From an uncultured virus (IMG/VR IMGVR_UViG_3300010383_000006) (lineage: Duplodnaviria; Heunggongvirae; Uroviricota; Caudoviricetes), in the IMG/VR virus record IMGVR_UViG_3300010383_000006: a DNA stretch of 20,000 bases. One strand, given 5' to 3'. Positions 12 through 19,999 of the stretch are shown here, one piece after another. The stretch's first letter is position 1; the number at the start of each line of letters is the position of its first letter. Below the pieces are notes generated by a model. The model was not told where the DNA came from. It saw nothing but the letters and a program-made list of their open reading frames with translations, and searched no databases. The position numbers and the translations under genes were made by a program.

Positions 12-254
12 GTGAAAGACGTGATCCACAAATGGATCGACGCCGCCAATTCCACCATCGAACTCTTGTCGATGCCTGACCTGCAAGAGGATTACGCCTC
101 GGCTGGATTCGATATGTCGATCTTCGCACTGGCCAGTGTCCATGCGCCATTGCTCGACGGCCCCAAGGACATGGAGGCGCTGCTTGAACGATTCCGCGAG
201 GCCCTGATCCGGCAGAACCAAGTTTTCCACCAAACCCCATCGAGGACCAACTAA
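12..254 (+). CDS. Hypothetical phage protein, probably 5'-truncated by the window edge
   Basis: Frame is open back to position 3. Its TAA (252-254) overlaps the next ATG (TAATG coupling). Confidence 0.65.
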   Translation: MKDVIHKWIDAANSTIELLSMPDLQEDYASAGFDMSIFALASVHAPLLDGPKDMEALLERFREALIRQNQVFHQTPSRTN

Positions 255-1228
255 TGAAGAATGATTTTTCTTGGTATCTAAACGCGCTCAAGGGTGTGCG
301 CGGTCCGATCACGGCGGATGATCCGGAGCCTGGTTTCTATGAGAGCCGGTTCAAGAACCGCGACACCGGCAAGGTGACGCGCTCGATCGTGGCCTACTGG
401 CATGATTCCAACGATGGCGGCCTGCGTTGCCACAAGAACGGCCGCGACGTCGACGATCTCGCCGCCCGCGAGATGTGGCCCTACGCCTCGAAATACCCGA
501 TCACCGAGGAAACCTATCACGCCGTGCGCGCGGGCAAGCCGTGGCCGGACGTGGATGGCACCGTCGATGCTGCGACCGAGGATGACGGCACCAAGTCAGA
601 GGCCGAGAAACTGGTCGATAAGATCAAGGCGGCCAAGGCCAACGTCCCGCTCTACACCAAGATCGATTCCGACGAACTGTCGGCCAAGGCGCAGTCGCTG
701 CGCTCCGAACTGACGGCGCTCGCCGGCCGGCTCGACAAGGAACGTGAGGCGCTGGTGCGGCCGCATATCGATGCCCAGCGCGACATCAACGGCGCGTGGA
801 ATCCCCACATCAAGGAAGCCAAGGATCAGGCCACCTTGATCCGCAAGGCGCAGGAGAAGTGGGAGGATGACAAGCGGGAGGCTGCGCGGCGCGCACAGGA
901 CGAATTAGATCGACAGGCCGAGGAAGCACGGCGGAAACTTGAAGCCGCCCAAGCCGACGGCAAGCCTGCACCAGTCGATGACGCACCCCCGCCCCCCCCG
1001 CAGTCGAACATGCCCGCGCCCTCGACCCAGATCAGGGGCGGCACCCGTCGCGCGGCCTCGGTCAGCGTCTGGCACGAGGCCGAAATCACCGACCAGGATG
1101 CGGTTTATCAGCACTTCAAGACCGATGCGGCGGTGAAAAACCTGCTCCGGCAACTGGCGCAGAACGCCACCAACGCGGGCATCACGGTGCCGGGCGTTGT
1201 CACCCATGAGCGGAGCAAAGTGCGATGA
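254..1228 (+). CDS. Phage protein with aromatic-rich N-terminal domain and long coiled coil, upstream of recT (Gam/Gp157-like architecture is only a guess)
   Basis: 324 aa, GAGG RBS at 242-245, coupled at both ends. Heptad-like Ala/Glu/Lys/Arg region, Pro-rich linker, C-terminal 'AGITVPGVVTHE'. Confidence 0.8.
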   Translation: MKNDFSWYLNALKGVRGPITADDPEPGFYESRFKNRDTGKVTRSIVAYWHDSNDGGLRCHKNGRDVDDLAAREMWPYASKYPITEETYHAVRAGKPWPDVDGTVDAATEDDGTKSEAEKLVDKIKAAKANVPLYTKIDSDELSAKAQSLRSELTALAGRLDKEREALVRPHIDAQRDINGAWNPHIKEAKDQATLIRKAQEKWEDDKREAARRAQDELDRQAEEARRKLEAAQADGKPAPVDDAPPPPPQSNMPAPSTQIRGGTRRAASVSVWHEAEITDQDAVYQHFKTDAAVKNLLRQLAQNATNAGITVPGVVTHERSKVR

Positions 1229-2631
1229 CCGGGAAAACCGTCGAAATCTTCAAGGGCGAAATCCTGCCGCCCGCCAAGGCCGAAGAACTCTGGACCTCCC
1301 TCCCGGCCCAGATCAAGCCCGCCGTGTTCGAGCGCAATCTGATGAACGCGCTGATGGCGAATCCCGATCTGATGAACTTTGACGCCCGGCTGGTCTATCG
1401 CGAGGTCGCCAAGGCGGCGGCGCTGGGCCTGCTGCTCGACCCCATCTTGGGCGAGGGCTATCTGGTCACGGCCTACAATTACAAGTCCAAGCGCGTCGAG
1501 CCGCAATTGCGGGTCGGCTACAAGGGCATGGCCAAACTCGCCCGGCAGAGCGGCAACGTGCGCAATCTCTACGCTCATGAAATCTGCCAGCTTGATCACG
1601 TCGAGGCCGACCTTGGATTCCCCAAGGTGTTCCACCACAAGCCGAAACTGTTCACCGACCGCGGCCCGATCATCGGCTATGTGGCGTTGATCACGTTCGA
1701 CGACGGCACGTTCGATTTCGAGCCGATGTCGTTGGAGGATTGCTTGGGGATCCGCGACCGCTCCGATGCATGGAAAGCCTTCAAGGAAGGAAAGATCAGG
1801 TCGACGCCGTGGTCGACCGACGAATCCGAGATGTGCAAAAAGACCGTGCTGCGGCGCCTGCTCAAGCGCCAGCAGCAGTCGCCGGAAATGGTGACGGCCC
1901 AGCGCATCGAGGATGAAGCCGAATTTCCCGAAATGAGCGGGAGCGGTCCGGCCATCCCGCGCGATTCAGGTCCGCCGTCGGCGCAGGTGGCACCGCCGCC
2001 GGAGAAACTGGCCGCGCCGGAGGCCACGCCGGAAACCAAGCCCGAGCCCGAGCCGGAAACCAGGCCCGAACCGGAGCCGGAAACGCCCCCCAGCGAGGCC
2101 GAGCAGGGCGCGATGGGCTTTGATGAGCCGGAGGAAGAACCGGAGCGCCAGCCCGAAACGATCTCGACCGCGAGCACCACGTTCCAGAGATGGGCCGACG
2201 AATACATCGCGGCGGTCGGCACCACCCGCCAGCCCGGCACCGTGTTCAAGTGGGCCGACGCCAATCACGTCGCGCTCGGCAAGATCGCGGTCGGCGCGCC
2301 TGCGATCTATGCCGGGATCAAAAAGGCCACCGAGCAGCAGTTGCAGCGCCTGCGCGGCACCTCGACGGCGCAGCCCAAACCCGCCCCCAAGGCCGAGACC
2401 AAGCCCAAAGCCTCGCGCAGCCGCAAGAAGGGTGCTGCCGAGGACGCGAGCGACCCCGAATCGGTGCTGCGCAAGATCGATGCCGAACTGGCGCGGGTCG
2501 CGAACGCCGACGATCTCGAGCAGGTATGGAACGACAAGTGCGCGCCGCTGCTCGACGATCTTTTGCCGCCGGATCGCGATGAGGCCATGGGCATCTACAC
2601 CGCTCATGAAAAGCGCCTCGGGGGAGACTGA
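1225..2631 (+). CDS. recT: RecT-family single-strand annealing protein with long C-terminal extension
   Basis: Motifs 'AAALGLLLDPILGEGYLV', 'QLRVGYKGMAKLARQSG' and 'PWSTDESEMCKKTVLRRLLK' are typical of RecT. ATGA overlap with the upstream gene. Confidence 0.92.
   Translation: MTGKTVEIFKGEILPPAKAEELWTSLPAQIKPAVFERNLMNALMANPDLMNFDARLVYREVAKAAALGLLLDPILGEGYLVTAYNYKSKRVEPQLRVGYKGMAKLARQSGNVRNLYAHEICQLDHVEADLGFPKVFHHKPKLFTDRGPIIGYVALITFDDGTFDFEPMSLEDCLGIRDRSDAWKAFKEGKIRSTPWSTDESEMCKKTVLRRLLKRQQQSPEMVTAQRIEDEAEFPEMSGSGPAIPRDSGPPSAQVAPPPEKLAAPEATPETKPEPEPETRPEPEPETPPSEAEQGAMGFDEPEEEPERQPETISTASTTFQRWADEYIAAVGTTRQPGTVFKWADANHVALGKIAVGAPAIYAGIKKATEQQLQRLRGTSTAQPKPAPKAETKPKASRSRKKGAAEDASDPESVLRKIDAELARVANADDLEQVWNDKCAPLLDDLLPPDRDEAMGIYTAHEKRLGGD
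2029..2085 (+). repeat. Imperfect 24-bp tandem repeat (about 2.4 copies) encoding PETKPEPE/PETRPEPE/PET in the RecT linker
   Basis: ccggaaaccaagcccgagcccgag / ccggaaaccaggcccgaaccggag / ccggaaacg. Confidence 0.8.
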
Positions 2632-2634
2632 CCC

Positions 2635-3093
2635 ATGAGTATCGACCTGCCGATGCGGAAGCGCCAAGGCCGCCCCGGCGAGGTCGGCCTATTCCTCGAG
2701 ACCCCCGTGTTTGATGATGATTTTGCCAACATCAAAATGGGGGCCGAGGTCCAAGTGAAGGTGACCCAGCCGCGCAGCCTCCCGCAGCACAAATTCGCCT
2801 GGGCACTCGCGAGCAAACTGGCCGAAGCCTACGATCACGCCATCAGCAAAGACGACATGATGGACATGCTGCTGGTCGAGGCGCGGCACTACCGCAAGGT
2901 CTGGGATCCGTTGCGCAAGCGGGTCGAACTGAAACCAAAGCCTACCAATTTCGCGGCGATGGATGGCGTCGCTTACACGCGCCTGCTCAAGCGCATCACC
3001 TACGTGGCCACCACCGTATTCGTCCCGGGGTTGCCCGAATCCGATCTCAAGGCCGAGATCGAGGCCATGCTGGCCCCAACCGGAGATTTCTGA
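2635..3093 (+). CDS. DUF1367/NinB(Orf)-like recombination accessory protein
   Basis: 152 aa. 'VKVTQPRSLPQHKFAWAL' and 'PKPTNFAAMD' resemble the PR(N/S)xxxHxxxxAL and (S/T)xxFxxMD motifs of DUF1367/NinB-like proteins. Directly downstream of recT with a GGGAG RBS. Confidence 0.65.
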   Translation: MSIDLPMRKRQGRPGEVGLFLETPVFDDDFANIKMGAEVQVKVTQPRSLPQHKFAWALASKLAEAYDHAISKDDMMDMLLVEARHYRKVWDPLRKRVELKPKPTNFAAMDGVAYTRLLKRITYVATTVFVPGLPESDLKAEIEAMLAPTGDF

Positions 3094-4838
3094 TGACCTT
3101 TCCCGTTGCCCGCCCGATGCTGGATGACCGCCTCGCCATTGTTGGCATCTCCGGCTCCGGCAAGACTTACGCCGCTTCCACCGCCGTCGAACTCATTCTC
3201 AAATCGAAATCGCGCGCCATCATCGTCGACCCCCTCGGGGTGTGGTGGGGTCTGCGCCTGCGCACCGACGGCATCACGCCGTCGATTTTCAACGTGGTGA
3301 TTTTCGGCGGTCCCCACGGCGATCTGCCGATCAACGAGCACTCCGGTGCGCTGATCGGGGAAGCGGTTGCGGGCATGGCCGAGTCCTGCGTCCTCGATCT
3401 CAGCCAGTTGGGCACCAAGGCGGCCGAGCGGCGGTTCATGCTGGCGTTCCTCACCGCTCTGTATCGCAAGACCACGGGCGAGCCGGTCCATTTGGTGGTG
3501 GATGAGGCCGACATGTTCGCGCCGCAGCGGCTGATGGACAAGGAAGGCGACGCCGCCAAGTTGCTCGGCATGATGGAGACGGTGGTGCGCCGCGGCCGGG
3601 TCAAGGGCTTCATCCCGTGGCTGATCACCCAGCGGCCAGCGGTGTTGTCCAAGGACGTTCTGAGTCAAGCCGACGGCCTGCTGGCGTTCAAGATGACCTC
3701 ATCGCAGGACCGGAGCGCGATCGGCGGCTGGATCGAAGGCCAGGCCGATCAGCAGCAGGGCAAAGCCATCCTTGCGTCCCTGCCGACCCTTGAACTCGGA
3801 CAAGGCGTCGTCTGGCTGCCGGGGCACGGCATCCTCGAGACAGCGCGATTCCCCACCAAGACCACCTATGATTCGTCGCGCACTCCGAAGCGCGGCGAGA
3901 CGCGCCACAGCGCCAACCTGCAGCCTTTGAACCTCGACAAGTTGCGCGAGCGGCTGGTGAAGGTGACGGTCGAGCAGGCCCAGAACGATCCGAAGGCACT
4001 CCGCGCCGAGGTCGCCGCCCTCAAGGGGGAAATTGCGAAATTGCGCAATTCGGCAAACTCCACCCCGGTGATCGACAAAAAGGCGATCGAGAAGGCGCGG
4101 CAAGAAAGTTATGCGGCAGGCATCGCGTCCGGCCGCTCCCACATCCGGGGCGTGTTGGGCGATTTCTGGCGGCAGGTCGACGCTCTCCATGAGAAATTTT
4201 CAAAAGAGGTCGATCGCCTGTGCGATCTGGCTCACGACGAAAGCTACAAGGCCACCAAATCGAACCCGGTCTCGCCAGCGGCACCCAAGCAACCCGCTTC
4301 TGCACCGGCTATCCCTGCCCCCCCCCGACCGTCGGCGGCGAGCGACGGTTATTCGGCTCCCCAGCAGCGCGTGCTCGCGTCGCTGATGTTCTGGCTGTCC
4401 ACCGGGGAGGCGGCGCCGACCCGCGAACAGGTCGCGGCGGTGGCGGGCTACGCCCCGGGCAGCGGCAATTTCAACAATATCCTCGGCTCGCTCAAAAGCC
4501 TCGACGCCGTGAGTTATCCAACCCCGGGCCGCGTCGAGTGCTTGGTGCAATACGGCCAGGCTCCCTCCCTCGCGGAGGCCCGCACCACGCTGCTGGATAA
4601 GGTGCTCGGCGGTCCTCATCGCAAGATTTTGTTGGCGATGAAAGACCTCCCCGCCCCGGCCAAGCGCGACGACATCGCACAGGAAAGCGGCTACGCCGCC
4701 GGATCGGGCAATTTCAACAATCTGCTCGGCAAGCTGCGCACCCTGTGCGTGATCGACTATCCCCAGCAAGGCTACGCCGAGATCACGGCGTGGGCCAACC
4801 ANNNNNNNNNNGGAAACGGAAATGTATATCGTCGTTGA
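3093..4838 (+). CDS. HerA/FtsK-superfamily (DUF87-type) P-loop ATPase with coiled coil and two C-terminal winged-helix-like repeats; 3' end uncertain because of the N-gap at 4802-4811
   Basis: Walker A 'GISGSGKT', Walker B 'LVVDEAD', arginine-finger-like 'RRGRVKG' and 'ITQRPA'. TGATG coupling to the upstream gene. Confidence 0.88.
   Translation: MTFPVARPMLDDRLAIVGISGSGKTYAASTAVELILKSKSRAIIVDPLGVWWGLRLRTDGITPSIFNVVIFGGPHGDLPINEHSGALIGEAVAGMAESCVLDLSQLGTKAAERRFMLAFLTALYRKTTGEPVHLVVDEADMFAPQRLMDKEGDAAKLLGMMETVVRRGRVKGFIPWLITQRPAVLSKDVLSQADGLLAFKMTSSQDRSAIGGWIEGQADQQQGKAILASLPTLELGQGVVWLPGHGILETARFPTKTTYDSSRTPKRGETRHSANLQPLNLDKLRERLVKVTVEQAQNDPKALRAEVAALKGEIAKLRNSANSTPVIDKKAIEKARQESYAAGIASGRSHIRGVLGDFWRQVDALHEKFSKEVDRLCDLAHDESYKATKSNPVSPAAPKQPASAPAIPAPPRPSAASDGYSAPQQRVLASLMFWLSTGEAAPTREQVAAVAGYAPGSGNFNNILGSLKSLDAVSYPTPGRVECLVQYGQAPSLAEARTTLLDKVLGGPHRKILLAMKDLPAPAKRDDIAQESGYAAGSGNFNNLLGKLRTLCVIDYPQQGYAEITAWANXXXXGNGNVYRR
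4802..4811. other. Assembly gap (10 N)
   Basis: Run of n. The true stop of the ATPase gene may lie in or near it. Confidence 0.99.
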
Positions 4839-5442
4839 TACTGAAAGCACCGGCCTGTTCGATTACCGCGCGCCGGCCGACGCGCCCCACCAACCCCGCA
4901 TGGCCGAGATCGCCATCCTGTTCGCCAACGCCGACCTCGAGGTCGAGCGCGAATACCGCGCGCTGATCAAGCCCGATGGCTGGGTCATGCCGCCGGAGGT
5001 CACCGAACTCCATGGCCTGACCCAAGAGATGCTGATGGAAAAGGGCGTCCCGGTGCTCGAGGCCCTGACCGTCTACAACGAGGCGATTGCCGAGGGTCGG
5101 GTGATGGCGGCGCACAACGCCCAGCACGACGCCAAGATGCTCCGCGGCGAACTGCGGCGCGCCGGATTGCCGGACCAGTTCGAGGACGCTCCGAATCTGT
5201 GCACGATGCGGACCCTCACCGACATCTGCCAGATTCCCTACGCCAACGGCCGCAAGGGCTACAAATTCCCGAAGCTGTCGGAAGCCTGCGCGTTCTTCGG
5301 CATCGAGCAGGCGGCGCAGCACAGCGCCTACAGCGACGCCATGGACTGCCTGCAACTCATGCGCCGGATGAAACAGGTCGGCGCGCTGCCCGAGGCCAAG
5401 GTGCATTACGCGAAAGCGCCTCCGGCCGGAAAGGCGGTGTGA
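4822..5442 (+). CDS. DEDDh 3'-5' exonuclease (DnaQ/epsilon-like)
   Basis: ExoI 'VVDTESTG', ExoII 'AHNAQHD', ExoIII 'HSAYSDA', plus 'CTM' and 'PKLSEAC' segments. Confidence 0.93.
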   Translation: MYIVVDTESTGLFDYRAPADAPHQPRMAEIAILFANADLEVEREYRALIKPDGWVMPPEVTELHGLTQEMLMEKGVPVLEALTVYNEAIAEGRVMAAHNAQHDAKMLRGELRRAGLPDQFEDAPNLCTMRTLTDICQIPYANGRKGYKFPKLSEACAFFGIEQAAQHSAYSDAMDCLQLMRRMKQVGALPEAKVHYAKAPPAGKAV

Positions 5443-9607: not shown

Positions 9608-12600
9608 CTATTGCTGCCCCAACCCTTGGGGCTGATCCTGATTCTGATCGGCGCGGGCTGGCAACGAACCGCCCCACCCCGTGGTGTCGATATGCAGGCG
9701 CGGAATACCGGTCTCCTGACCTGCGTTCGCGAGGCGATCGGCCAGCGCGCGCATCCCGTCCGCGACCTTCTGGTTGCTGACCATGATCCGCAGCCCTTGA
9801 GCGAGTTTGCGCGGATCGTCGGAGGTGAGCAGATCGGCCACCCGGGCGGCGGTGGCGGAATCGACCTTGCCGATGAGTTTGCGCGCCCCGGCCGCCATCT
9901 CGCTGGCGAGCGCGCGCCGGGCACCAGCAGCCCCGGCAGCGCCGGCCACGGCCCCTTTCCAATCGCCGTCGAGGTAGCCGCCGAGCGCGCCCCCGGCCAG
10001 ACCCGCCTCGATCAGTTGCCGCGCCGTCGTTGAGTTGCCCATCGCCTTGCGGGCGCCGTCCATCACCGCCTCGAGGGTCATGCGGGCTTGCAGCTTGCGC
10101 AGGCCAGCGTCCCCGAACAGGACCCGCGCCATCTCACGCTCATTCGGGGAGTTGAACATCGCCTTGGTGATGTCGCGGCTGTCGCGGAAGCCGCCGATCA
10201 CCCGACCGGCCCAGTCCGAGGCGAAGCCCTCGCGGAATAGGTCTTTCTCTTCCGGCGACATCTTACGCATCAGGCCCGCGACCACCTGCGGGTCCACGCG
10301 CTTGCCCGCGAGTTGACGCCCGGCCTCGAGCGCATCGCGCTCTCCGAAGAACTGTGCCGCGATCCCGCGCGCCTGCCCATATTCCGGCACCGCCTCGTCC
10401 AGTTTGCCGCGCAGCACCTTCGACCAGGCGTTGCCATCAGCCCCCATCTTGTCGAGGTTCTTTTTCACCACGTCCCAGAATTGCAGGTTGGGCGTGAAAT
10501 TCGGATCGGTCAGCGTCACCGTGCCGTCCTTGTTGAACTGGAACGGATTCACCGGAGGCTTGAGACCCAGCTTGGCCGCCTCGTTGCGGCCGTTCACGGT
10601 GGCCATGCGAATCGCCTGCCCGACCACCGGGGCCTGCGCCATCTGGGCGAACTCATCGTCCCACATGCCCTGCGCGCCGGGCTGCGCGAACGCCTTGCGG
10701 TAGGCCGGGATGCGCGCGACGTCGTACTCGGCCACCAACTGGTCGGCGGTCTTGTGAGCATTGGCGCCGCCGCTGACAAGGCTGCGGACATCGTGCGCGA
10801 CGCGCTCGGCCTGCCCCTCGAACCGGTCTCCGAACGCCTTTTCCAGCGTGCCCCGGGCCTCCGGGGAGGTGTTGGCTGCCGAGCGCAGCAGCGATTGCAC
10901 CCGGGTGCCCCCGAAATCGGCCAAGGTCACCGGCTCGCCGGCCGCTTTCGCCGCCTGCCACTGCGCCGGGGTGAGGCCGGTCATCTTGCCCGCCGCGATG
11001 TCAGCCGAATCGGCCTCGGCCGCGGTGAACAGACGCCGCGCCGCTTCCGCCTCAGATCCCCGGGTGAGACCGACCACCGAATTCCANNNNNNNNNNNNNN
11101 NNNNNNNNNNNGGTCGGCCGGATCGAGGGTGCGCTTGAGGAAATACCCCGCGCCTTCGGTCAGGGGAGCCGCCAGGGCGCCGCCAGCGCCGCCCGCCACC
11201 GCGCCCGCACCAGCGCCCACCGCGCGGGACGCCGCATCCTCGCCCTCGCCAGCGCCCGCCAGCGCCCCATATTCCGAGCCGACCAGCGCGCCCTGCCGCA
11301 TCCGGGCGCCCAGCGTGACCCCGCGCGCCGCCATGCCGCCCGGCAGCGCCATCATCGACGGCACTGCGCCTGCGAACTCGCCGCCCATGTAGGCGTAGGG
11401 GTGCTGCTCCTTGGCCAGCTTGTTGGCCTCGCGCTCGCGCTTCGCTCCGGCCTCATAGGCTTCCTCGGCCCCGGGCGCGCCGGTCCAGTAACGGTACGCG
11501 CCCTTCATCACCGAGATCGGGTCATTCCACTCATCCGGCTTGACGCCGCCCGCCTCACCGATGCCGCGCAATTCATCACCGAAACCGAACGTCGCGCCCT
11601 GATAGGCGCCGCGGGCCGCCGCGCTCATTGCACCGGCATCCGGCTTCACTTCCTCGAACGGCTGGTTCGGATCGAACGCAGGTTCGACCACATCGAACGG
11701 CTTGTCAGGATCGAACGTCGGAGCGCCGGCCATATCCACTCTCCCGCCTTGCGCGCGAAAATCGTCGCTCTGAATAAACGCCCAATCGTCCGGCGTCATC
11801 ATCGAGTTGGTCTGCTCAAGGTAGTCGTTGAGGATGCGGCTGCGGTCGTTATTCCACGCCGCGCGCACTTCCCCGACGTGGCGATCCCATGATCCCTTGG
11901 CCGGGTCGGGCCGCTTGAAGTCCCAGCCCTTGGCCGATTTGCCGGTGGGGATGCCCTGCCCGCGCTTTTTGATCGCCTGAATTTTGTAGTTCGGATCGTT
12001 GAGCGGGTCCCAGCGCATCGCGGACAGCGGGGTGCCGAACACCGCCGAGTCGTCGAACAGCGCGAACCCCTTGCTGCGCGCCTGGTCTTTCAGCGACTGC
12101 GGGATGTCGATGTACCAGACCGGCTCCTTGGCCTGCTGCAATTTGATCGGAGGATCGGTGCGGTTCTCATTGATCCGCGCCAGCCACTGATCGGCGGCGG
12201 CGCGATTTTGTGCGGGCCAGTCCGCAATGACGTGCCCACGGTTGTCGACGGCTTCCCATTTTCCGGGCAGATGACCCTTCTGCGCCTTCACCCCGTACTG
12301 TTTCGCGATCTTCTCGATCGATTTGGGAATCATCTGGTCATAGAACCCGCGCATTCCCTCGCCGCCGATCTTGAGGTCGGCATTGCGCAGGATGCTCACG
12401 CCCCTATCGTTCGGTTCGGTTTTCAGCAGCTTCTCGGCCGCTTCCTTGCCGATGTGATCAGCCAGTTTGGCCTCGGGCACCACGCTGGTGATGTGCTTCA
12501 CGCCGTTTTTGTCGACCGCTTCCAGATAGCCGGATTTCTTGTCGTAATTGATCTGGTCGATGGTCTTGCTCAGATCGTAGCGCGCCGCCTGCGCGTCGCC

Positions 12601-15600
12601 CGGCGTCCACGACAGCCGGTCATAGCCGCCCTCGGCCGCTTCACGCAGCGCGCGCTTGAGCGCCAGTTCGTGCCACGTCTTTTTGAATGGGGCATCGGGG
12701 ACGCCGGTATCCTTCTTGCTGGACGCCCGGTCATTCAACTCCCGCCAGCGGGCCTGCTGCTCAGGAGACGCGGCTGAGAAGTCCTCTCCGATCACGTCCC
12801 GCTCGGCAATCTCGGCGTTCGAGAGCGGCTTCTTTGTGTTGTACCCCTTGTCGCGCCCCTGCTGGTGCCAGTCCGACTGGATTTCCTCGAGGTGGAGCGA
12901 GCGCGCCTGACGCGGCTTGGGTTCGGGCGGCAGGCTGGCGCGCAACTGATCCTCCTGCGCGCGCAACTCCTGCAGCCGGTTCTGCAACGGGATGAGTTCG
13001 GGCAAGTCCTCGCCGTACAGCGCCTGTTCAAGCAGCTTGTTGGTTTCTGGACCTGAGACCTTCCCGCTGCGGTAATCCTCCATGATCTGATCGCGCTTCG
13101 CCTGCCGGAGCGGCTTCGCGGTCGCATTGATCTCGCGCGCCACGTCGGCCTGCTGGGCGCGGATCGAATCCAGTTGCCCCTGTGCCGCCCGGCGCGCCTC
13201 GATCGCCGCCGTTTCCTCCGGCGTGAACGGCAGCGCCATCGAGCGGTCGTTCATCCGCATGTGCGCCACGATGTTCGGCTCATCCCAGTGGGAGGATTTG
13301 TAATTGTCTCCGCTCACCACGTCGCGATTCTGTTCCATCCACCGCGAATATGCCGCGCGAGCCTCCGGGCCATCCTGCATCCCCTGCTGTTCGGCCCATT
13401 GGGCAAACGTCTTGGGACCAGAGGCGCGACGATCCGGCAGCGTCAGTAGCATCTCGCGGTAGTTCTCGCCGCCCGGCAGTTGGTACTGGTGATAGCGCGT
13501 CGGCGGGGGACCAGCCTCCAACTCATTGGCACGCTTGTCGGCCAACGCGAGAAAGCGATCAGACTGCGGATCAAGATCAGGGTTCTCGCGGGTGATTTCC
13601 TCAGTGGCGCGGTCCCAAACCGTGTCGGGATCATGTCCCTTGCCGCCCTTCCACACCTCGTTGAGGTGCACCTGGTTGTCGGCCAGATGCTCGGCGATCT
13701 CCTGCTTGGTGACGGGCTGGCCTTTGCGCTCGGCAAGGAAGTCGGCGAGGCCGGTCCACTGCAATTCCTCGGCCTTCACGCCCGGCTTGTTCGACAGCGT
13801 GCCCAGCCACTGGTCGCCGGTCATCTTGGGCTGCTTGATGTCGCCCACCGCACGCTCGACTGCGGAAAAGAACGGGGGGGCACGCTCCAATGCCGCGAGC
13901 GGCGCGCCGACGTTGCCGGAATCCGAATAAAGCACGCGCTCGACATGGGATCCGTTAGGCACCACCGCCGACACCGACCCGGCATCCTCACCGACGTTTC
14001 GATAATAATAGCCGCGCTTTGCCGCTCCGCGCTTTAATTGACCACGCATGTATCCGTTCGCGCGAAAATCCTCATGCGGTGCATTGCGCTGGTTCGACAT
14101 CCGCCCGGTGATCCGGTACGGCTCGACCGACGGCTTCACATCCATCGGCATCACTGAGCCGTCGGGATAACGCACTTCTTTGGTCGGATAATAATCATGA
14201 AGCGGGGCGTCGACATTGTATCCTGTGCGGTTGTATCCGCGCGGGTCCATCCGCTTCAAAGTTTCTTGGCCTGCCAGCAGAGTGCGACCATATTCCGCGT
14301 CGCCGCTCCACCCGCGGCCGTGCGCCGGAATGCCGATCCTCGCCTCAAGCGCCTCCTGCGCCGCTTTCCTTGTCCCGAGATGCAGCCCACTCTCACCCCC
14401 TCGCAAATCGCCGCTGGCGGACCCGTGCCACCACACATTCGGGTCACCCTCAAGCGGCGCTAGACGCTGCGCCCTTTCCAGCGCGGACAGCGGCGCGCCC
14501 GGCGCGGCGGCGTCCTCAAGCAGCAGTCCCGACTTGCCGAGGTTCTTGGGATCGAACCGCGCGAACTGCGAGCGCACCTGCTCGGGACCGAACGGAATTG
14601 CCACGGTGTGCCCCATGCCGCCCATCTTGCCGCCGGTATCAAGGATGCCGTCATAGCCCAGCGAGCGCAGCGCGTTGGTGATCTTGTCGGGGATCGAGGT
14701 CCAAACGTAGGAATTCTCGCCACTGGCATAATCCTGCTTGGCCTGCTCGATCCATTCCTTCGGCGTATAGCGGTGGTTTTTGTCCCACATATCGGCGCCG
14801 AATTCGGCCTTGCGCGAGCGGTCACGCTTGAACATTTCCTCGAGCCGCGGCAGCACCCTCTCAGTCATCACCTGCGTGTTGGTGGTGTCGAGCGGGTTGG
14901 TCATGCGGATGCGCGCCGGCGTGACGCCGCGCGCCTCGGTCCACGGCGCGGTGGTTTCGCTGATCTGATGGGGGTAGCCCGCGAGCCGGTAAACCTCCGA
15001 CAACTGGCTAGGATCATCCACAAACCGCCCGCTGTCGTTCCAGAGTTCGCGCAATGCAGCAAGATGGTTGCCGCGCGCCTCGTTGTTCAAAACCCAGTCG
15101 TAGTGGCTTCCGGCCCCGGTGGCATTCACGCCCTCGGGATGAAGGGTAAGAGGACCTTCGGCCATGTCGATATTCTCATGGCCGATGCGCCGCGCCTTGG
15201 CGGCAATTTCCGCGCGCTGCTCCGGCGACAGAAACCGCCACGTATCCTCGACCGGAATCCGGGTGCGCGAGGCCCAACCCAGATCCTTGGGGTGGATAGT
15301 GAAGTAGTCCGCCACGCGGCCCTCATCCACCAGCGACGTGTCGGGCTTTTTGCCCATCGCGTAGGAGGATGCCATTTCGGGATTGTCGGTGAAGTACGGC
15401 ATCGGCCCCGACGTCGCGCGCTTGGGGTCGATCTTTCCGCTCTCGGTAAAACGGTCCATGCGCAGACCGCCGTGATACCACGGTCCCTCGAATCCCTGTT
15501 CGGCGGCACGGGCCATGCGCGAGGCTTCATCCATCGGCAGCGCGCCCGCGCGCCGCACTGGCCCGGCCCCGAGCGACGCCACCGAACTGTCGGCCGCGCC

Positions 15601-17171
15601 GAACGCGGTGCCGCCGGCCATGCCAGCGGTGTCCTGCGCCCGCGCCAGCAATTCCTGCTGATCGAGCAGGCGCCGGGCCTCATCCTCATCGGACCACTGC
15701 CCCGGCACCGCCGGTTTGGTGTCGAACTTGCCGGCCGCGACATCGCCCGGTAGCGACGCGCCGCTGCGGATCATTTTTTCCGGCCACGTCTGATAGCGGT
15801 CCTCGCCGCCGGTCCCGAACAGCCGGTTGCCGAACATGGTGCCGGGCGAGAATTCCATCTCCCCCAATCGGGTGAGGAAATTGCCGTCGCCACCCAGATC
15901 CACCACGTCGCCGCCCTCGGCATAACCCACCCGACCGCCGGACGCGCGCCCGCGCGGCATCTGCGCGTTACAGCAGGCATGGGGATGAACAGCGACATCG
16001 AGGTCGAACTGGTTGGGAAACTCGCGGTTCAATTCTTCATACAGCCCGCACTTGCCCGCGTCGAAATACCGGCAGTTCTCGCACCGCACCGGGTGATCGA
16101 CATAGCCGACCTCGGCCTTGGTCATGTTGGCGATCGGGTGGCCGAGCGGCGCGCCCTTGATGTAGAACCCGCAACTGCCGTTTTCGGGATCGACCTTGGC
16201 GCCGCCCATGATCGCGCAGTGCTCATGGCCGAACCGGCAGGTGCCGCACTGGGCAAACCGTCCGCTGGTGCTGTCGAGATACAGGAAGGCGTCGCGGCCC
16301 ATCTTGGTGCGCCGATCCGGCACGCGGCCGCCCGCAGCGCGGGCGTACAGCCGCTCCTGATCTTCGTGCAGTTGGCGCGCATAGGCGTCGGAATTTTCCG
16401 GGGTATCAAACACCCCGAGATGCTTGCCGCTCATTCTGTAAAGCCGCACGGCGTCGGCATCGGAAAGTACCGCGCCATCTGGGCTCACGGTCGGTAGCAA
16501 CACCTCGCGGCCGTCCATATTCACACCGATCGACCGCACAGTGCTGATTGAGCCATCCGGGTTGTGCACCACCGGCCGAGAATTGAGATCGATGTTGCCG
16601 GGTTCGACCATGCCGGGCACTCGACCGCCGCTGGCACGGTGCAACGGTTTGGTGGTGTCGCCGGTTTTCAGCCAGTCCTTGAACTGGTCGACCGTCATTT
16701 CGGTGAGCGCACCGAGGCGTTGGTCGGCTTTGCCGTCCGAGAACGCCTTGCGGTAGGTGGCGAGCACATGACGCGGCGACGCGAACCCGAAAAACACCTT
16801 GTGCTCATCCCACCGTCCCGTGTCGGCGTCGCGCTGGTCGACCACGAACACCTTGGCGCTCTTGAGGTGGGGTCCCACATAGACGTCGACATGATCACCG
16901 TCCGCGCCCTCGGTGCGGCGGATATAGCCNNNNNNNNNNNNNNNNNNNNNNNNNNNNTATAGCCATAATGCGCGGGCAGGCGGCATTTCCACGGCTTGCC
17001 GTCCGGCCCTTTCCCCGAGCGCGTCGCGCCGCAGGCGTTCTCGATCACCACATCAAGGCCGTGCGCCTTGACGCGGCCCTTGCGGTAATTGCCCGCCGCC
17101 TTCTGGCCCTCGGTCGGCGCGGCGTTGGTGCGCCGGGCCTGATCGTCGAGATGCTTGCGCAGATCCATCAC
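9608..17171 (-). CDS. Giant (~2,500 aa) polyvalent, probably virion-ejected protein: InPase-like, GNIDL domain, tandem HiPIP-like, two ART-like, EEIQSDW domain, C-terminal ejection-protein-like region. Split into ORFs 16695-17171, 10981-16992 and 9608-11077 by two N-gaps
   Basis: Both frame changes coincide with N runs. At 16930-16957 the flanks share 'tatagcc'; collapsing the gap (35 nt) restores frame and the motif HYGYIRRTEGADGDHVD. At 11087-11111 both frames are open up to the gap. The start (GTG 17171 or ATG 17168) overlaps the upstream TGA. Confidence 0.82.
11087..11111. other. Assembly gap (25 N) inside the giant gene
   Basis: Run of n; its nominal length is out of frame with the flanking open frames. 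Confidence 0.99.
16930..16957. other. Assembly gap (28 N), probably spurious because the flanks overlap by 7 nt
   Basis: Left flank ends ...gatatagcc; right flank begins tatagccataatg. Confidence 0.95.
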
Positions 17172-19999
17172 GGCACCGCGTGATATTGGCCGTCCGCCCC
17201 CAATTCAAAGAGACGGCCGTTCTGCCGCACCTGCTTGGGCTTGGTGGCAGTGTCATGCCCGCTCACCGCCTCCAATTCTTTCTTGGTGTGGGGGTCGAGA
17301 AAATCGTCGAAATTCTTGAGTTTCGTGGTGGCTTCATATTGTCGGCGCAAGCCCTTCATCTGACCGGCCATCAGTTTCTTGAACTCAGTGGTAATGCCGA
17401 GGAGCTGTGCCGGACTCTGCGAATTGGCAGCGCGCCGCGCCATGTCGTCACGGTCATGGAGCGCGGTCTGTCCACCAACCACGGCCTTGGCGATTTCGGC
17501 GCTGACCACCTGCTTGATCGAATCGAAATTGGTGGTCACAGGATTGCCCGTTTGCTGTTTTGCATAATTCACAAGCCTGTTCAGCGCGGGGATGTCACCG
17601 TTTTGCAGCGCGCGGGCAGCGTCCTCAAGGGTGTTGAGATGGTCGATCGCGACGTTGAGCGAGCGCACCGTGCGGCCCTCGGGGCCTCCCGCGAAATTGC
17701 TCACCGCGCGGTTTTTGCCTGTGAACTGGGTCTGGTCGTAATCGGGGTACGCTTGCATGACGTAGCCCAGAATGCGTTCGCGATGACCGCCACGCACCGA
17801 CAGCGACGTCAGCGGGGTCTTGTAGGTCCCGATCGCCTTGACCGTGCCGGCCAGTTGCGGATTGCGCGCCGCCAGTTCGGCGAGGAAGGCGTCACCGGTC
17901 AGTCCCGGATCGATCGGCCCGTTGCTCTTGCCCCCGGCTCCTGGTGCTCCGACATTGGGTGCCGCGACGCCCTGCGTCGTCATGTTGTTCGGGTTGATCC
18001 AGCCGTATTGCTTGATCCCGGTCAGGGGGTCCTCGCCGATCACGCCCCACGTCGGCTTGAACTCCTTGCCTTCGGTCGCGCGGTTGTGACGCTCGGTTTC
18101 AGTCTGCTTGCGAGTTTCCAAAGCCAGTTTCTCGGCCGCATCCTTGGCTTTCTGTGCCAACTCCTGCGCGGTTTTCGCCTGCTCTTGCTCACCCTTTTTA
18201 ACCCCAGCATAGGTTCCGAATCCGGCCAGACCGCCCTCGCCGATGGCGTTGCCGAGATTCGGCGAACGCGACGCCATCATGCCCAGGCCGCCCGCGATCA
18301 GCGCGGCGCGCTCGGCGTTGGTCCACGGAATCAGGATGCCGCTGCGCTCATCGCCGGTCGGGACCGGGCCCACGCCGGGCAGACGGGACTGTGCCGACAG
18401 ATCGGTCGGTGCCCCGGGAGGGACATCGGCCGGAACATCGGGGGCATCATCCTGCGCCACCACCGGGGGGGAGATCGGCCCGACCCCCGGCTTGCCGTCC
18501 GGCCCCGGCAGCGGGTTGGCCTCGCGCCACTCCTGCGTCGCTTCGGCCGACGGCATATGGATCGGATCGAACGGATTGATCGCATCACCGACATCGGTGG
18601 GCGGCTGGAACGGGTCATAGCCCGGGGTGGTGTTATCGCCACCCCAGCGCTCGCCGAATGGTGTGCCGCCGGCGGCAAAGCCCGCGACGCCGCCGCCGCG
18701 GCGGAAACCGGTCCCATAATCCGAGGCGTCGAGCCCGGGCAACGGCTGGCTGCTGCTGCCGCCCCATTCACTGTTGAACACGTTGCCGCCGCCATAGGCT
18801 TCGCCGCTGTACTTGCCCGCGAGGCCCGCCAGACCGGTCGCCGCCTTCATGATGCCCTCGGCGCTGACCCCCGAGCCACCATCACGCGACGAACCCGGCG
18901 AGATCGGCGACGGCGCGCCGCGCCCCGCCGTGATGTTCATCTTCGGCACCCAGCCCTGCGCGGCATCGAACGGCACGCCTGCAACGCCGCCGCCGCTGTC
19001 GAAATGCCCGACCACCCCGCCATGGGCGCGGGCCGCCTCATCGGTGGCACCCTTCACGTCGATGAATTTCAGGCCCGCGACGCCGGGGGCGACCGATTCG
19101 GGATGGCGCTGCTCGACCTCCTGCGCGATCGGCCCGATGTGCCATTCCGGTGATCCCTTGTAACGGTACCGGTAGATGTTCTGGCCGTCGTTCATCTTGC
19201 CGATGTGTTCGATGTCCTCCTTGGCGCGCTCATCCGACAAAAGGCCGAGCGCCGAAACGCCGAGCCCGAGCCACTGCGCCGTCGAGTTCGGCTGCGGCTG
19301 GGTCGAGGTGCCGTAGGACGTGCCACCGAGTTGCGACCCCACGCCGGTCTGCAAGCCCGCCAGCCACTGCAAGGTCTGGAACGGATAGGCCTGTTGCTGC
19401 ATGTACTGACCGTACTGCGCGGTGTCGGCCGCCTGCTGGGTCTGCTGCTGCAGCGTACCCGCCCCGAGTTGCGCGGTCGCCCCCGACAGCGCCGCGCTCT
19501 GTCCGGCGACGCCGAGATTGCCCAGCGAATACGCCGCCGCCTGCTTGCGCTGCTGATCGGCCTGCGCCGCCGCCAGCGCCTGCTGATAGCCCTGCGAGCG
19601 CAGATTGGCGAGCACCGGGGCCTGCGCCAGTTGCTGCTGGCCCGCAAGGTTGGCCTGCGCCACGCCCAGCCGATTGCCGCCCAGCGCGCCCTGCGCCGCC
19701 GCCTGGCTCAACACACCCTGCTGCGCCTGCTGGTTCTGGTTGTTGAACTGTGCCTGCGTCGCGTCGATCACGCTCTGGGTGTAGGGATCCTGATACGCCG
19801 CGATCTGCTCGGGGGAAATCGGATTGGCGGCATCGGTCGCCAGCCCCGCCGCCTGCTGAATGTAAGGCTGCGCGAATCCGGCGTTGGCGTTGATGTTGCC
19901 GATCGCGGTTTGCTGCTGCGCGTTGATCGGCGCGGTCAGTTCGCCGCTGTAGGCCTGATACGGCGTGTTGGCGACCGTCGCGGCGCGCGAAATGAGAGA
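17168..19999 (-). CDS. Large putative DNA ejection/pilot protein: Gln/Ala-rich N-terminal region, internal Peptidase_S74 (intramolecular chaperone autocleavage) domain, Gly/Pro-rich linker, helical C-terminal ejection-like region; 5'-truncated by the window edge
   Basis: Frame is open from 19999 (SLISRAATVANTPYQAYSGELTAP...YQDPYTQSVID), so the 19771 start is not the real one. 'LLSDERAKEDIEHIG...IYRYRYKG...GPIAQEVE...PESV' at 19055-19237 is an S74-like motif. Confidence 0.85.
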   Translation of the reverse strand, partial: SLISRAATVANTPYQAYSGELTAPINAQQQTAIGNINANAGFAQPYIQQAAGLATDAANPISPEQIAAYQDPYTQSVIDATQAQFNNQNQQAQQGVLSQAAAQGALGGNRLGVAQANLAGQQQLAQAPVLANLRSQGYQQALAAAQADQQRKQAAAYSLGNLGVAGQSAALSGATAQLGAGTLQQQTQQAADTAQYGQYMQQQAYPFQTLQWLAGLQTGVGSQLGGTSYGTSTQPQPNSTAQWLGLGVSALGLLSDERAKEDIEHIGKMNDGQNIYRYRYKGSPEWHIGPIAQEVEQRHPESVAPGVAGLKFIDVKGATDEAARAHGGVVGHFDSGGGVAGVPFDAAQGWVPKMNITAGRGAPSPISPGSSRDGGSGVSAEGIMKAATGLAGLAGKYSGEAYGGGNVFNSEWGGSSSQPLPGLDASDYGTGFRRGGGVAGFAAGGTPFGERWGGDNTTPGYDPFQPPTDVGDAINPFDPIHMPSAEATQEWREANPLPGPDGKPGVGPISPPVVAQDDAPDVPADVPPGAPTDLSAQSRLPGVGPVPTGDERSGILIPWTNAERAALIAGGLGMMASRSPNLGNAIGEGGLAGFGTYAGVKKGEQEQAKTAQELAQKAKDAAEKLALETRKQTETERHNRATEGKEFKPTWGVIGEDPLTGIKQYGWINPNNMTTQGVAAPNVGAPGAGGKSNGPIDPGLTGDAFLAELAARNPQLAGTVKAIGTYKTPLTSLSVRGGHRERILGYVMQAYPDYDQTQFTGKNRAVSNFAGGPEGRTVRSLNVAIDHLNTLEDAARALQNGDIPALNRLVNYAKQQTGNPVTTNFDSIKQVVSAEIAKAVVGGQTALHDRDDMARRAANSQSPAQLLGITTEFKKLMAGQMKGLRRQYEATTKLKNFDDFLDPHTKKELEAVSGHDTATKPKQVRQNGRLFELGADGQYHAVP

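Follow-up and report, generated by a model that had tools for sequence, protein, structure and literature searches.

The window, as we call the whole stretch of 20,000 nucleotides of uncultured Caudoviricetes DNA that was analyzed, carries on its minus strand a giant gene whose reading frame is broken because of runs of N. Three such runs are present in the window (4802-4811, 11087-11111 and 16930-16957), and the match to phrog_5880 is divided between ORFs 10981-16992 and 9608-11077. The related proteins P0126, P0018 and P0043 are uninterrupted across both frame breaks, and the ATG at position 17168 starts the InPase N-terminus. Most likely, the real gene spans positions 17168 to 9608. It is flanked by a gene for an ejection protein (phrog_4287) and an endolysin gene, and the same gene order, downstream of tail genes, is found in L017. 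The modules of the gene product follow each other in the order InPase, GNIDL domain, Cys-rich domain, a cargo block of ca. 1,380 residues and a phrog_5880 module, with four copies of a short Gly-Gly peptide, referred to below as the tag, between them:

9608-17168, minus strand: giant polyvalent virion cargo gene, ca. 2,520 aa, in three frames in the window owing to two N runs
16958-17168, minus strand: InPase, N-terminal portion, preceding the N run (PF18823, positions 2-52 of the profile, E 4e-15)
16666-16929, minus strand: InPase, C-terminal part (PF18823 profile positions 49-135, 96.9 bits, cut-off 26.8)
16618-16638, minus strand: tag 1, RASGGRV (motif match; coil with pLDDT <50 in the AlphaFold model)
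16342-16617, minus strand: GNIDL domain, 92 aa, without a Pfam family (AlphaFold pLDDT >90)
16321-16341, minus strand: tag 2, RAAGGRV (motif match; left joint of the 1,522-residue block missing in P0126)
15949-16320, minus strand: Cys-rich domain (stand-alone homologues; weak treble-clef match, E 0.036)
15904-15948, minus strand: tag 3, full bipartite RASGGRV-G-YAEGGDV, in the order seen in the family
11758-15903, minus strand: variable cargo block, residues 364-1745 (conserved N-terminal stretch plus ART-PolyVal-like and LPD23-like parts)
14569-14925, minus strand: ART-PolyVal-like part (E 4e-5, 24.8 bits, under the 31.2 cut-off)
about 12292-13887, minus strand: LPD23-like part (tblastn matches to proteins annotated LPD23)
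11713-11757, minus strand: tag 4, RAQGGRV with the degenerate second half DMAGAPTF (right joint of the block missing in P0126)
9608-11736, minus strand: constant C-terminal module (phrog_5880, E 3e-22 and 5e-46)

The InPase part at 16666-16929 also matches the C-terminal InPase of the portal protein gp19 (PDB 9b41_L). The GNIDL domain matched 4,748 protein clusters at E<=0.001, and a fold search of its model against the PDB gave no match at the same threshold. The Cys-rich domain is also found as stand-alone proteins of 120-151 aa (P0143, P0146, P0162 and P0180), and parts of the cargo block are separate genes adjoining the portal gene in L003-L009. The C-terminal module, within whose phrog_5880 match tag 4 falls at the N-terminus, is 47-78% identical to the C-termini of P0126, P0018, P0029, P0043 and P0132; a PDB sequence search with this module gave no match.

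Occurrence and conservation of the tag

The initial annotation had described a heptapeptide repeated at the module boundaries, and RAxGGRV is indeed present four times in one minus-strand frame (16618-16638, 16321-16341, 15928-15948 and 11737-11757, at residues 119, 218, 349 and 1747 of the 2,003-aa ORF), with no copies in the other five frames of the window. The third copy is followed by GYAEGGDV as described, with one correction: this second half occupies 15904-15927, and the lower bound given for it, 15907, was off by 3 bases. When the residues of the 2,003-aa ORF were shuffled 20,000 times, 19 shuffles contained one RAxGGRV and none contained more, giving an expected mean of 0.00095 per shuffle, far below the four copies observed. 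The copies do separate unrelated domains, namely the InPase, the GNIDL domain, the Cys-rich domain, the large cargo block and the phrog_5880 module. Since in pairwise comparisons they share only 10-16 of 21 nucleotides, the conservation is at the protein level, as had been concluded from their differing codons.

A motif frequency no higher than in shuffled ORFs and a lack of conservation in homologues had been named as refuting outcomes, and neither was obtained: 167 strict tags were found in 120 homologues compared to 14.7 +/- 3.7 in shuffled sequences, an 11-fold enrichment. The tag persists in relatives across 45-64% GC, and this range, together with the low nucleotide identity of the copies, leads to the conclusion that selection acts on the peptide. 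An origin by chance or by GC-rich composition was ruled out by the shuffles and by the persistence of the tag in relatives of lower GC content (45-54%). The tag-bearing relatives are podophages with an SU10-type portal and adaptor. In a plasmid-borne polyvalent protein of 5,000 aa, none of 20 GG dipeptides is part of a tag, a hint that the tag belongs with virions.

The tag has the general form [R/K/F/Y]-A-x-G-G-[R/x]-[V/I]; in many cases, [M/Y/F]-A-[D/E]-G-G comes 8-9 residues further on. This bipartite form is ordered in the family, with the basic half preceding the aromatic/acidic half, and the spacing peaks at 8 (53 pairs) and 9 residues (26 pairs). Judged by its order and spacing, the bipartite form looks more like one recognized unit than like two cut sites. 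Relative to background, Val is preferred 9.8-fold at position +2, Ala 4.3-fold at -2 and Arg, Tyr or Phe 3-5-fold at -3, so that both flanks of the Gly-Gly are constrained.

Two further bipartite tags are present in the upstream ejection protein, a PDB sequence search with which gave no match:

18983-19030, minus strand: RAHGGVV-GH-FDSGGGV, right after the Peptidase_S74 chaperone domain
18659-18706, minus strand: FRRGGGV-AG-FAAGGTP (motif match)

The first of these sites is kept in the L017 orthologue as ARARGGFVPHMAGGGDI.

Placement of the tag and search for a protease

Tags flanking the InPase domain were found at 107 of 191 internal junctions and at none of 73 free ends; on the two sides of the domain, the numbers are 64/109 and 43/82 for internal junctions and 0/23 and 0/50 for free ends. 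Homology of the window protein to P0043, P0029, P0018 and P0024 stops exactly at tag 1. P0126 corresponds to the window protein minus residues 224-1745, with the tags as exact swap joints, and the 1,522-residue block between tags 2 and 4 is present or absent among relatives. One and the same cargo module is found in three carriers: the window protein, L018 and, as a separate gene, L003/L004. Elsewhere, the majority of GNIDL junctions have no tag (tagged, 15/187 and 19/220).

The possibility that the tag is part of a folded domain was rejected, as tags 1 and 2 are modeled by AlphaFold as coil beside a domain with pLDDT >90. The same was ruled out for both tags of the carrier protein P0325, in whose model a GNIDL module interrupts a loop of a domain folded with confidence (pLDDT 84-97), between FADGGMV and FADGGAA. 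All 19 of 19 family members, including those without the insert, have the Gly-Gly of this loop. The tag, being present, enriched, conserved, confined to junctions, located in coil and coincident with swap joints, is a conserved junction element of swappable modules.

It had also been stated that no cognate protease is visible in the window, and this stands as far as Pfam detects. The scan covered 24 ORFs and, with E values up to 1, ten segments of the giant gene, and the only peptidase-named matches were the Peptidase_S74 domain, which is a chaperone, and the Amidase_2 domain of the endolysin. In G001 and G002, two complete related genomes that bear tags, the 134 ORFs gave no match to a Pfam peptidase at E<=1e-4, S78 and SprT-like families included, and clan CE cysteine proteases likewise had no Pfam match in these genomes, where most ORFs match no family. 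Their head modules encode a coiled-coil scaffold that has a helix-turn-helix at its C-terminus, and they lack a protease. The metalloprotease motif HExxH does not occur in seven cargo proteins. A divergent protease, one of unknown type or a host enzyme may be compatible with the absence of a Pfam match.

Several candidate functions were considered and discarded. The sequence of phrog_28737, considered as a hidden protease, is that of a coiled-coil scaffold. A self-cleaving protease of the S24/LexA type was considered for the conserved "GRTD" carrier domain, but the Ser that might serve it is not conserved; Pfam at E up to 10 gave only a weak DUF6496 match, the best Foldseek E was 0.19 and the best VIA-align Z was 4.0, for N-terminal helices only. 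Mimicry of the GroES mobile loop was also rejected, since the phage Cpn10 of MW202675 has KTKSGLYL at that place and not the tag.

Possible roles of the tag

We lean towards the explanation that the tag is an uncut connector and assembly handle (probability of about 0.4), in preference to a protease site or a passive hinge. The tags lie in disordered linkers between swappable modules of presumably packaged and injected podophage proteins and would stay uncut. As a connector, the tag would allow a new module to be inserted in frame with its neighbors unharmed; as a handle, it would be recognized by a putative partner in assembly that tagged proteins share, such as the scaffold, the inside of the capsid or other cargo with tags, so that whatever stands between two tags would be taken into the procapsid. 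Prediction of a complex between a tag-bearing L004 segment and the capsid and scaffold proteins of the same phage gave a score of 0.32 (mark, 0.34), which speaks neither for binding nor against it. Natural C-termini retain the entire tag (RNNGGTV, ARGGVAK and ARGGAP), and these, the tag-flanked insert in the folded domain of P0325 and the constrained Val at +2 appear to be a better fit for an uncut element. The constraint on both flanks of the Gly-Gly speaks for the same reading. Counted against an uncut handle are the junction-only placement, which suits a separator better than a per-module address, and the stand-alone GNIDL and Cys-domain proteins, which are almost never tagged. Small basic proteins that consist of little but tags (P0375, P0377 and L041:18274-18828) might just as well be precursors from which short basic peptides arise.

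Cleavage at the tag is an alternative explanation. A polyprotein would enter the head by its constant ends and would then, while inside the capsid or once injected, be cut at every joint to release free enzymes, with multi-tag basic proteins yielding short basic peptides. We consider this possible but doubtful. It would account for the presence of tags at internal junctions and not at free ends, for the seven-residue conserved core in disordered linkers and for proteins that contain nothing but tags and spacers. In 12 of 372 related proteins, the tag comes right after a short leader at the N-terminus, which resembles a propeptide. Proteolytic release of polyvalent-protein domains, by MPTase, has moreover been proposed already, with no site named in the portions of the article covered here (Iyer et al. 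2017, PMC5512222). However, a protease site is at odds with the lack of a Pfam peptidase family match in the window and in the two complete relatives, with the missing HExxH and with a head module built on a scaffold with no protease in it. The Val at P2' is constrained as strongly as the P side, a folded domain of P0325 contains an insert with tags on either side, and of the 32 proteins that have GG within the final 15 residues none ends in GG, the full tag being kept.

It is unlikely, in our view, that the tag is only a flexible hinge or swap joint that has no partner, travels as a linker with shuffled modules and is kept since in-frame joints at linkers survive. Such a hinge would agree with the coil in predicted models, with homology that breaks exactly at tags, with the block present or absent between two copies, with the three carriers of one module and with the tag-free ends. 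Yet it would need neither the ca. 10-fold preference for Val, nor the near-fixed Ala, nor the ordered bipartite form, and it does not explain peptide-level selection, the untagged majority of GNIDL junctions elsewhere or tag-only proteins, which hold no modules to hinge.

More broadly, we tentatively suggest that one Gly-Gly peptide, in variants across SU10-like podophages and crAss-like phages, might constitute a portable cargo code that marks modules for head entry and injection, acting either as a handle for docking or as the place where a processing system yet to be discovered would cut. Any protein put between two tags of a carrier gene would in that case become injected cargo. The selection and loading of injected phage proteins are understood for a few model phages only. 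If true, a conserved junction code would explain the free swapping of cargo enzymes among carriers, would make cargo sets readable from sequence alone and would offer a route to loading foreign protein into phage particles. A cut site, if true, would represent a new maturation system in tailed phages, parallel to the Gly-Gly-directed core processing of adenoviruses and large DNA viruses.

Comparison with known systems

The two analogies offered in the initial annotation, ubiquitin-like precursors and bacteriocin leaders, fail because their defining features are missing. The Gly-Gly does not follow a beta-grasp domain: preceding the tags are the InPase (an OB fold, according to the portions of Iyer et al. 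2017, PMC5512222, covered here), the GNIDL and the Cys-rich domain, and no Ulp family was found in the ORFs scanned. The tags are internal and not at the end of an N-terminal leader of 15-30 aa terminating in Gly-Gly, and Pfam reveals no C39 peptidase/ABC exporter in the window ORFs or in the 134 ORFs of the two complete relatives.

Core precursors of adenovirus and African swine fever virus are cut at Gly-Gly-X by clan CE proteases. The likeness is that internal virion proteins, small basic ones included, carry repeated short Gly-Gly motifs. Here, however, P4 is Ala and not Met/Leu/Ile, the constraint on Val at P2' has no counterpart there, and cleavage is putative; no such protease was found by Pfam in the window and G001/G002. 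The T4 capsid-targeting sequence and encapsulin cargo-loading peptides are short peptides that address cargo into an HK97-type shell. These are single terminal tags, whereas the present tag is internal, repeated and missing at free ends. It may serve as a capsid-loading signal, as had been suggested.

The closest parallel in architecture is provided by phage polyvalent proteins (Iyer, Burroughs, Anand, de Souza, Aravind 2017, PMC5512222), which, in the sections of that article considered here, likewise string together unrelated effector-type domains. The window gene has the signature InPase, several unrelated domains and a virion/packaging neighborhood; it is encoded among virion genes, and its product is presumably packaged and injected. 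Those sections name no junction motif and attribute processing to MPTase domains; the window protein has none. A literature search found no published description of the tag. Relative to the same sections, new elements in the description of polyvalent proteins are the tag as a conserved feature, its two-part form and its exact coincidence with swap joints.

A packaged protein with similar tags is the crAss001 cargo protein C1 (gp45) (Bayfield et al. 2023, PMC10172136), the text on which mentions neither tags nor Gly-Gly nor proteolytic cleavage. It belongs to another phage order, its tags are a different sequence family, and the Ala and Val positions are missing from most of them. Its ordered segments, 214-245 and 425-552, are bracketed by [F/Y]xxGG tags, and the cryo-EM-resolved stretch 425-552 passes through one such tag, which speaks for an uncut element. 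The C-terminus of gp45, KAKGGKV, fits the present consensus.

Architecture of the giant cargo gene

The initial annotation had described four copies of R-A-x-G-G-R-V, and a six-frame scan of the window recovered all of them on the minus strand in one shared frame, the motif being absent from the remaining five frames. Runs of N at 4802-4811 (10 bases), 11087-11111 (25) and 16930-16957 (28) interrupt the reading frames; the latter two fall within the giant gene and, as neither length is divisible by three, shift its apparent frame. The N-terminus of InPase (PF18823 domain) is encoded from an ATG at 17168, the match to the constant C-terminal module phrog_5880 falls partly on the last stretch of the big ORF and partly on the 9608-11077 ORF, and P0126, P0018, P0043 and like relatives are uninterrupted at both frame breaks. 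Because these observations bridge both N runs, the gene is most likely a single one, from 17168 to 9608 (minus strand), with a predicted product of ~2,520 residues. By the definition in the article text of Iyer et al. 2017 (PMC5512222), the product is a phage-type polyvalent protein.

Parts of the giant protein, in order
InPase: PF18823, 96.9 bits
16618-16638, minus: tag 1
16342-16617, minus: "GNIDL" domain, 92 residues, no Pfam family, 4,748 protein clusters, pLDDT above 90
16321-16341, minus: tag 2
Cys-rich domain, known also as a stand-alone protein
15928-15948, minus: tag 3, bipartite form, directly followed by GYAEGGDV at 15904-15927
1,380-residue cargo block: ART-PolyVal-like part (24.8 bits, under cut-off) and LPD23-like part
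11737-11757, minus: tag 4
phrog_5880 module, constant C-terminal part

Shuffled versions of the 2,003-residue ORF contained a mean of 0.00095 copies of the motif and never more than one (20,000 shuffles), against the four found. As had been suggested, conservation is at the protein level: the peptide is the conserved entity, since the 21-base copies have just 10-16 bases in common pairwise. In an AlphaFold model, tags 1 and 2 are in coil next to a confident domain, and the tag 3 region is poorly predicted throughout.

Ejection proteins from many groups of phages also contain the GNIDL domain, among them those of SPN1S, Klebsiella and Aeromonas phages and 869-aa glucosaminidase proteins; its model had no match in PDB. 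An InPase homologous to that of the window forms the C-terminus of the solved portal protein gp19 (765 aa, PDB 9b41_L), which ends three residues past the position where a tag would begin. Residues 1036-1567 (~12292-13887, minus) resemble part of a ~5,000-aa LPD23-annotated protein of Pseudomonas aeruginosa megaplasmids.

The upstream gene (17171-19999, minus) encodes an ejection protein (phrog_4287) with two bipartite tags, beyond which ~600 more residues follow. Its Peptidase_S74 intramolecular-chaperone domain is mid-protein (residues 255-302 of the visible part), not C-terminal. The downstream neighbour of the giant gene is an endolysin. On the opposite strand, 254-5442 (+) is a recombination/replication block with exonuclease-like, RecT, NinB/Orf-like and RNase T-type exonuclease genes and an ATPase with terminase-like PHROG matches.

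Tags at domain junctions and module exchange

Conservation extends to homologues: 120 long ones contained 167 copies of [RKYFH][AD]xGGx[VILM], at least one copy in 74 of them, against 14.7 ± 3.7 after shuffling (maximum 23, 200 shuffles). When positions around Gly-Gly were counted with the outer ones left free, Val at +2 was 9.8x background, Ala at -2 4.3x, and Arg, Tyr and Phe at -3 3-5x; the flanks are of low information and rich in G/P/D/A. Paired tags are frequent and of fixed order, R-A-x-G-G-R-V preceding [M/Y/F]-A-[D/E]-G-G at a spacing of 8 (53 cases) or 9 residues (26 cases). Tag sites are preserved in relatives of 45%, 49% and 54% GC and, in both ejection and cargo genes, in a syntenic locus (L017) whose ejection protein is 61% identical.

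Placement was analyzed around 132 InPase domains, a tag being scored within 20 residues of the domain. Downstream, tags were present at 64 of 109 domains followed by more protein and at 0 of 23 C-terminal ones; on the upstream side, values were 43/82 for internal and 0/50 for N-terminal domains. For 262 GNIDL domains, drawn from many groups of phages, the internal flanks with a tag numbered just 15 of 187 on the upstream and 19 of 220 on the downstream side. Stand-alone GNIDL and Cys-domain proteins almost always lack it, as do most GNIDL flanks, so the tag is an element of junctions that is specific to a lineage and belongs to no domain.

P0126 (973 aa) corresponds to the window protein without residues 224-1745, and its junction aligns to tag 2 and tag 4 alike. 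Homology with P0043, P0029, P0018 and P0024 breaks off at residue 125, with which tag 1 ends. In L003-L009 the cargo module of residues ~368-830 forms a gene of its own following the portal, and in L018 it is an insert between tags of a different carrier. The tag is the exact joint at which modules are swapped.

Carrier and tag-only proteins

The carrier seen in L018 is a small virion-module protein, conserved in all relatives compared, whose gene lies upstream of the ejection gene at a distance of ~1 kb. A helix pair at its N-terminus is followed by a tag and then by a domain of 115 residues, for whose model structure comparison matched no known fold. The domain has invariant R, D, D, N, E, H and R, and its internal loop closes with an invariant [RKF]-A-x-G-G. 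InPase, ART-like and GNIDL modules are found inserted in carriers; in P0325, GNIDL lies within the carrier-domain loop with a tag on either side. Other small basic/His-rich proteins are nearly all tag, with 5-10 copies of [RK]-x-G-G-[RK]-[VIA] and low-complexity spacers, some with Cys knuckles and a Pro-rich tail. Their genes either follow that for the capsid or are placed between cargo and scaffold genes.

Examples in related loci
L038:2135-2635: carrier protein
L017:8658-9146: carrier protein
L016:8527-9078: carrier protein
L002:10891-12039: tag-only protein
L003:11464-12798: tag-only protein
L041:18274-18828: tag-only protein
L045:4734-6089: tag-only protein

Cleaved site or uncut connector

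We consider it most probable (ca. 0.4) that the tag is an uncut connector and handle. That it is a protease site, as first proposed, is somewhat less probable. Restriction of InPase tags to junctions (107/191 internal versus 0/73 free ends), an N-terminal leader followed by a tag in 12 of 372 proteins and the existence of multi-tag basic proteins are in its favour, but residues past the Gly-Gly are constrained too, natural C-termini retain the whole tag (none of those listed ends in GG), and the P0325 insert is tag-flanked within a folded domain. Nor did a candidate enzyme emerge: in line with the initial annotation, Pfam revealed no peptidase family among the window ORFs, and none turned up in the 134 ORFs of two complete related genomes that bear tags. 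HExxH is absent from seven cargo proteins, and the head module has a scaffold and no protease. A passive hinge is less probable still than cleavage.

A full-text literature search, which took in the article text of Iyer et al., retrieved no published description of the tag. New here are the findings that tags are missing at free ends of InPase, that a deletion joint coincides exactly with tags, that the bipartite form is ordered, that a module is inserted within a folded domain of the carrier, and that a peptidase survey covering two complete genomes was negative. The ~5,000-aa polyvalent protein of the Pseudomonas megaplasmids, a single case, has zero Gly-Gly tags. In crAss001 gp45, similar tags of its own bracket resolved segments, and resolved segment 425-552 passes through one of them, a comparison that counts little because those tags are a different family.
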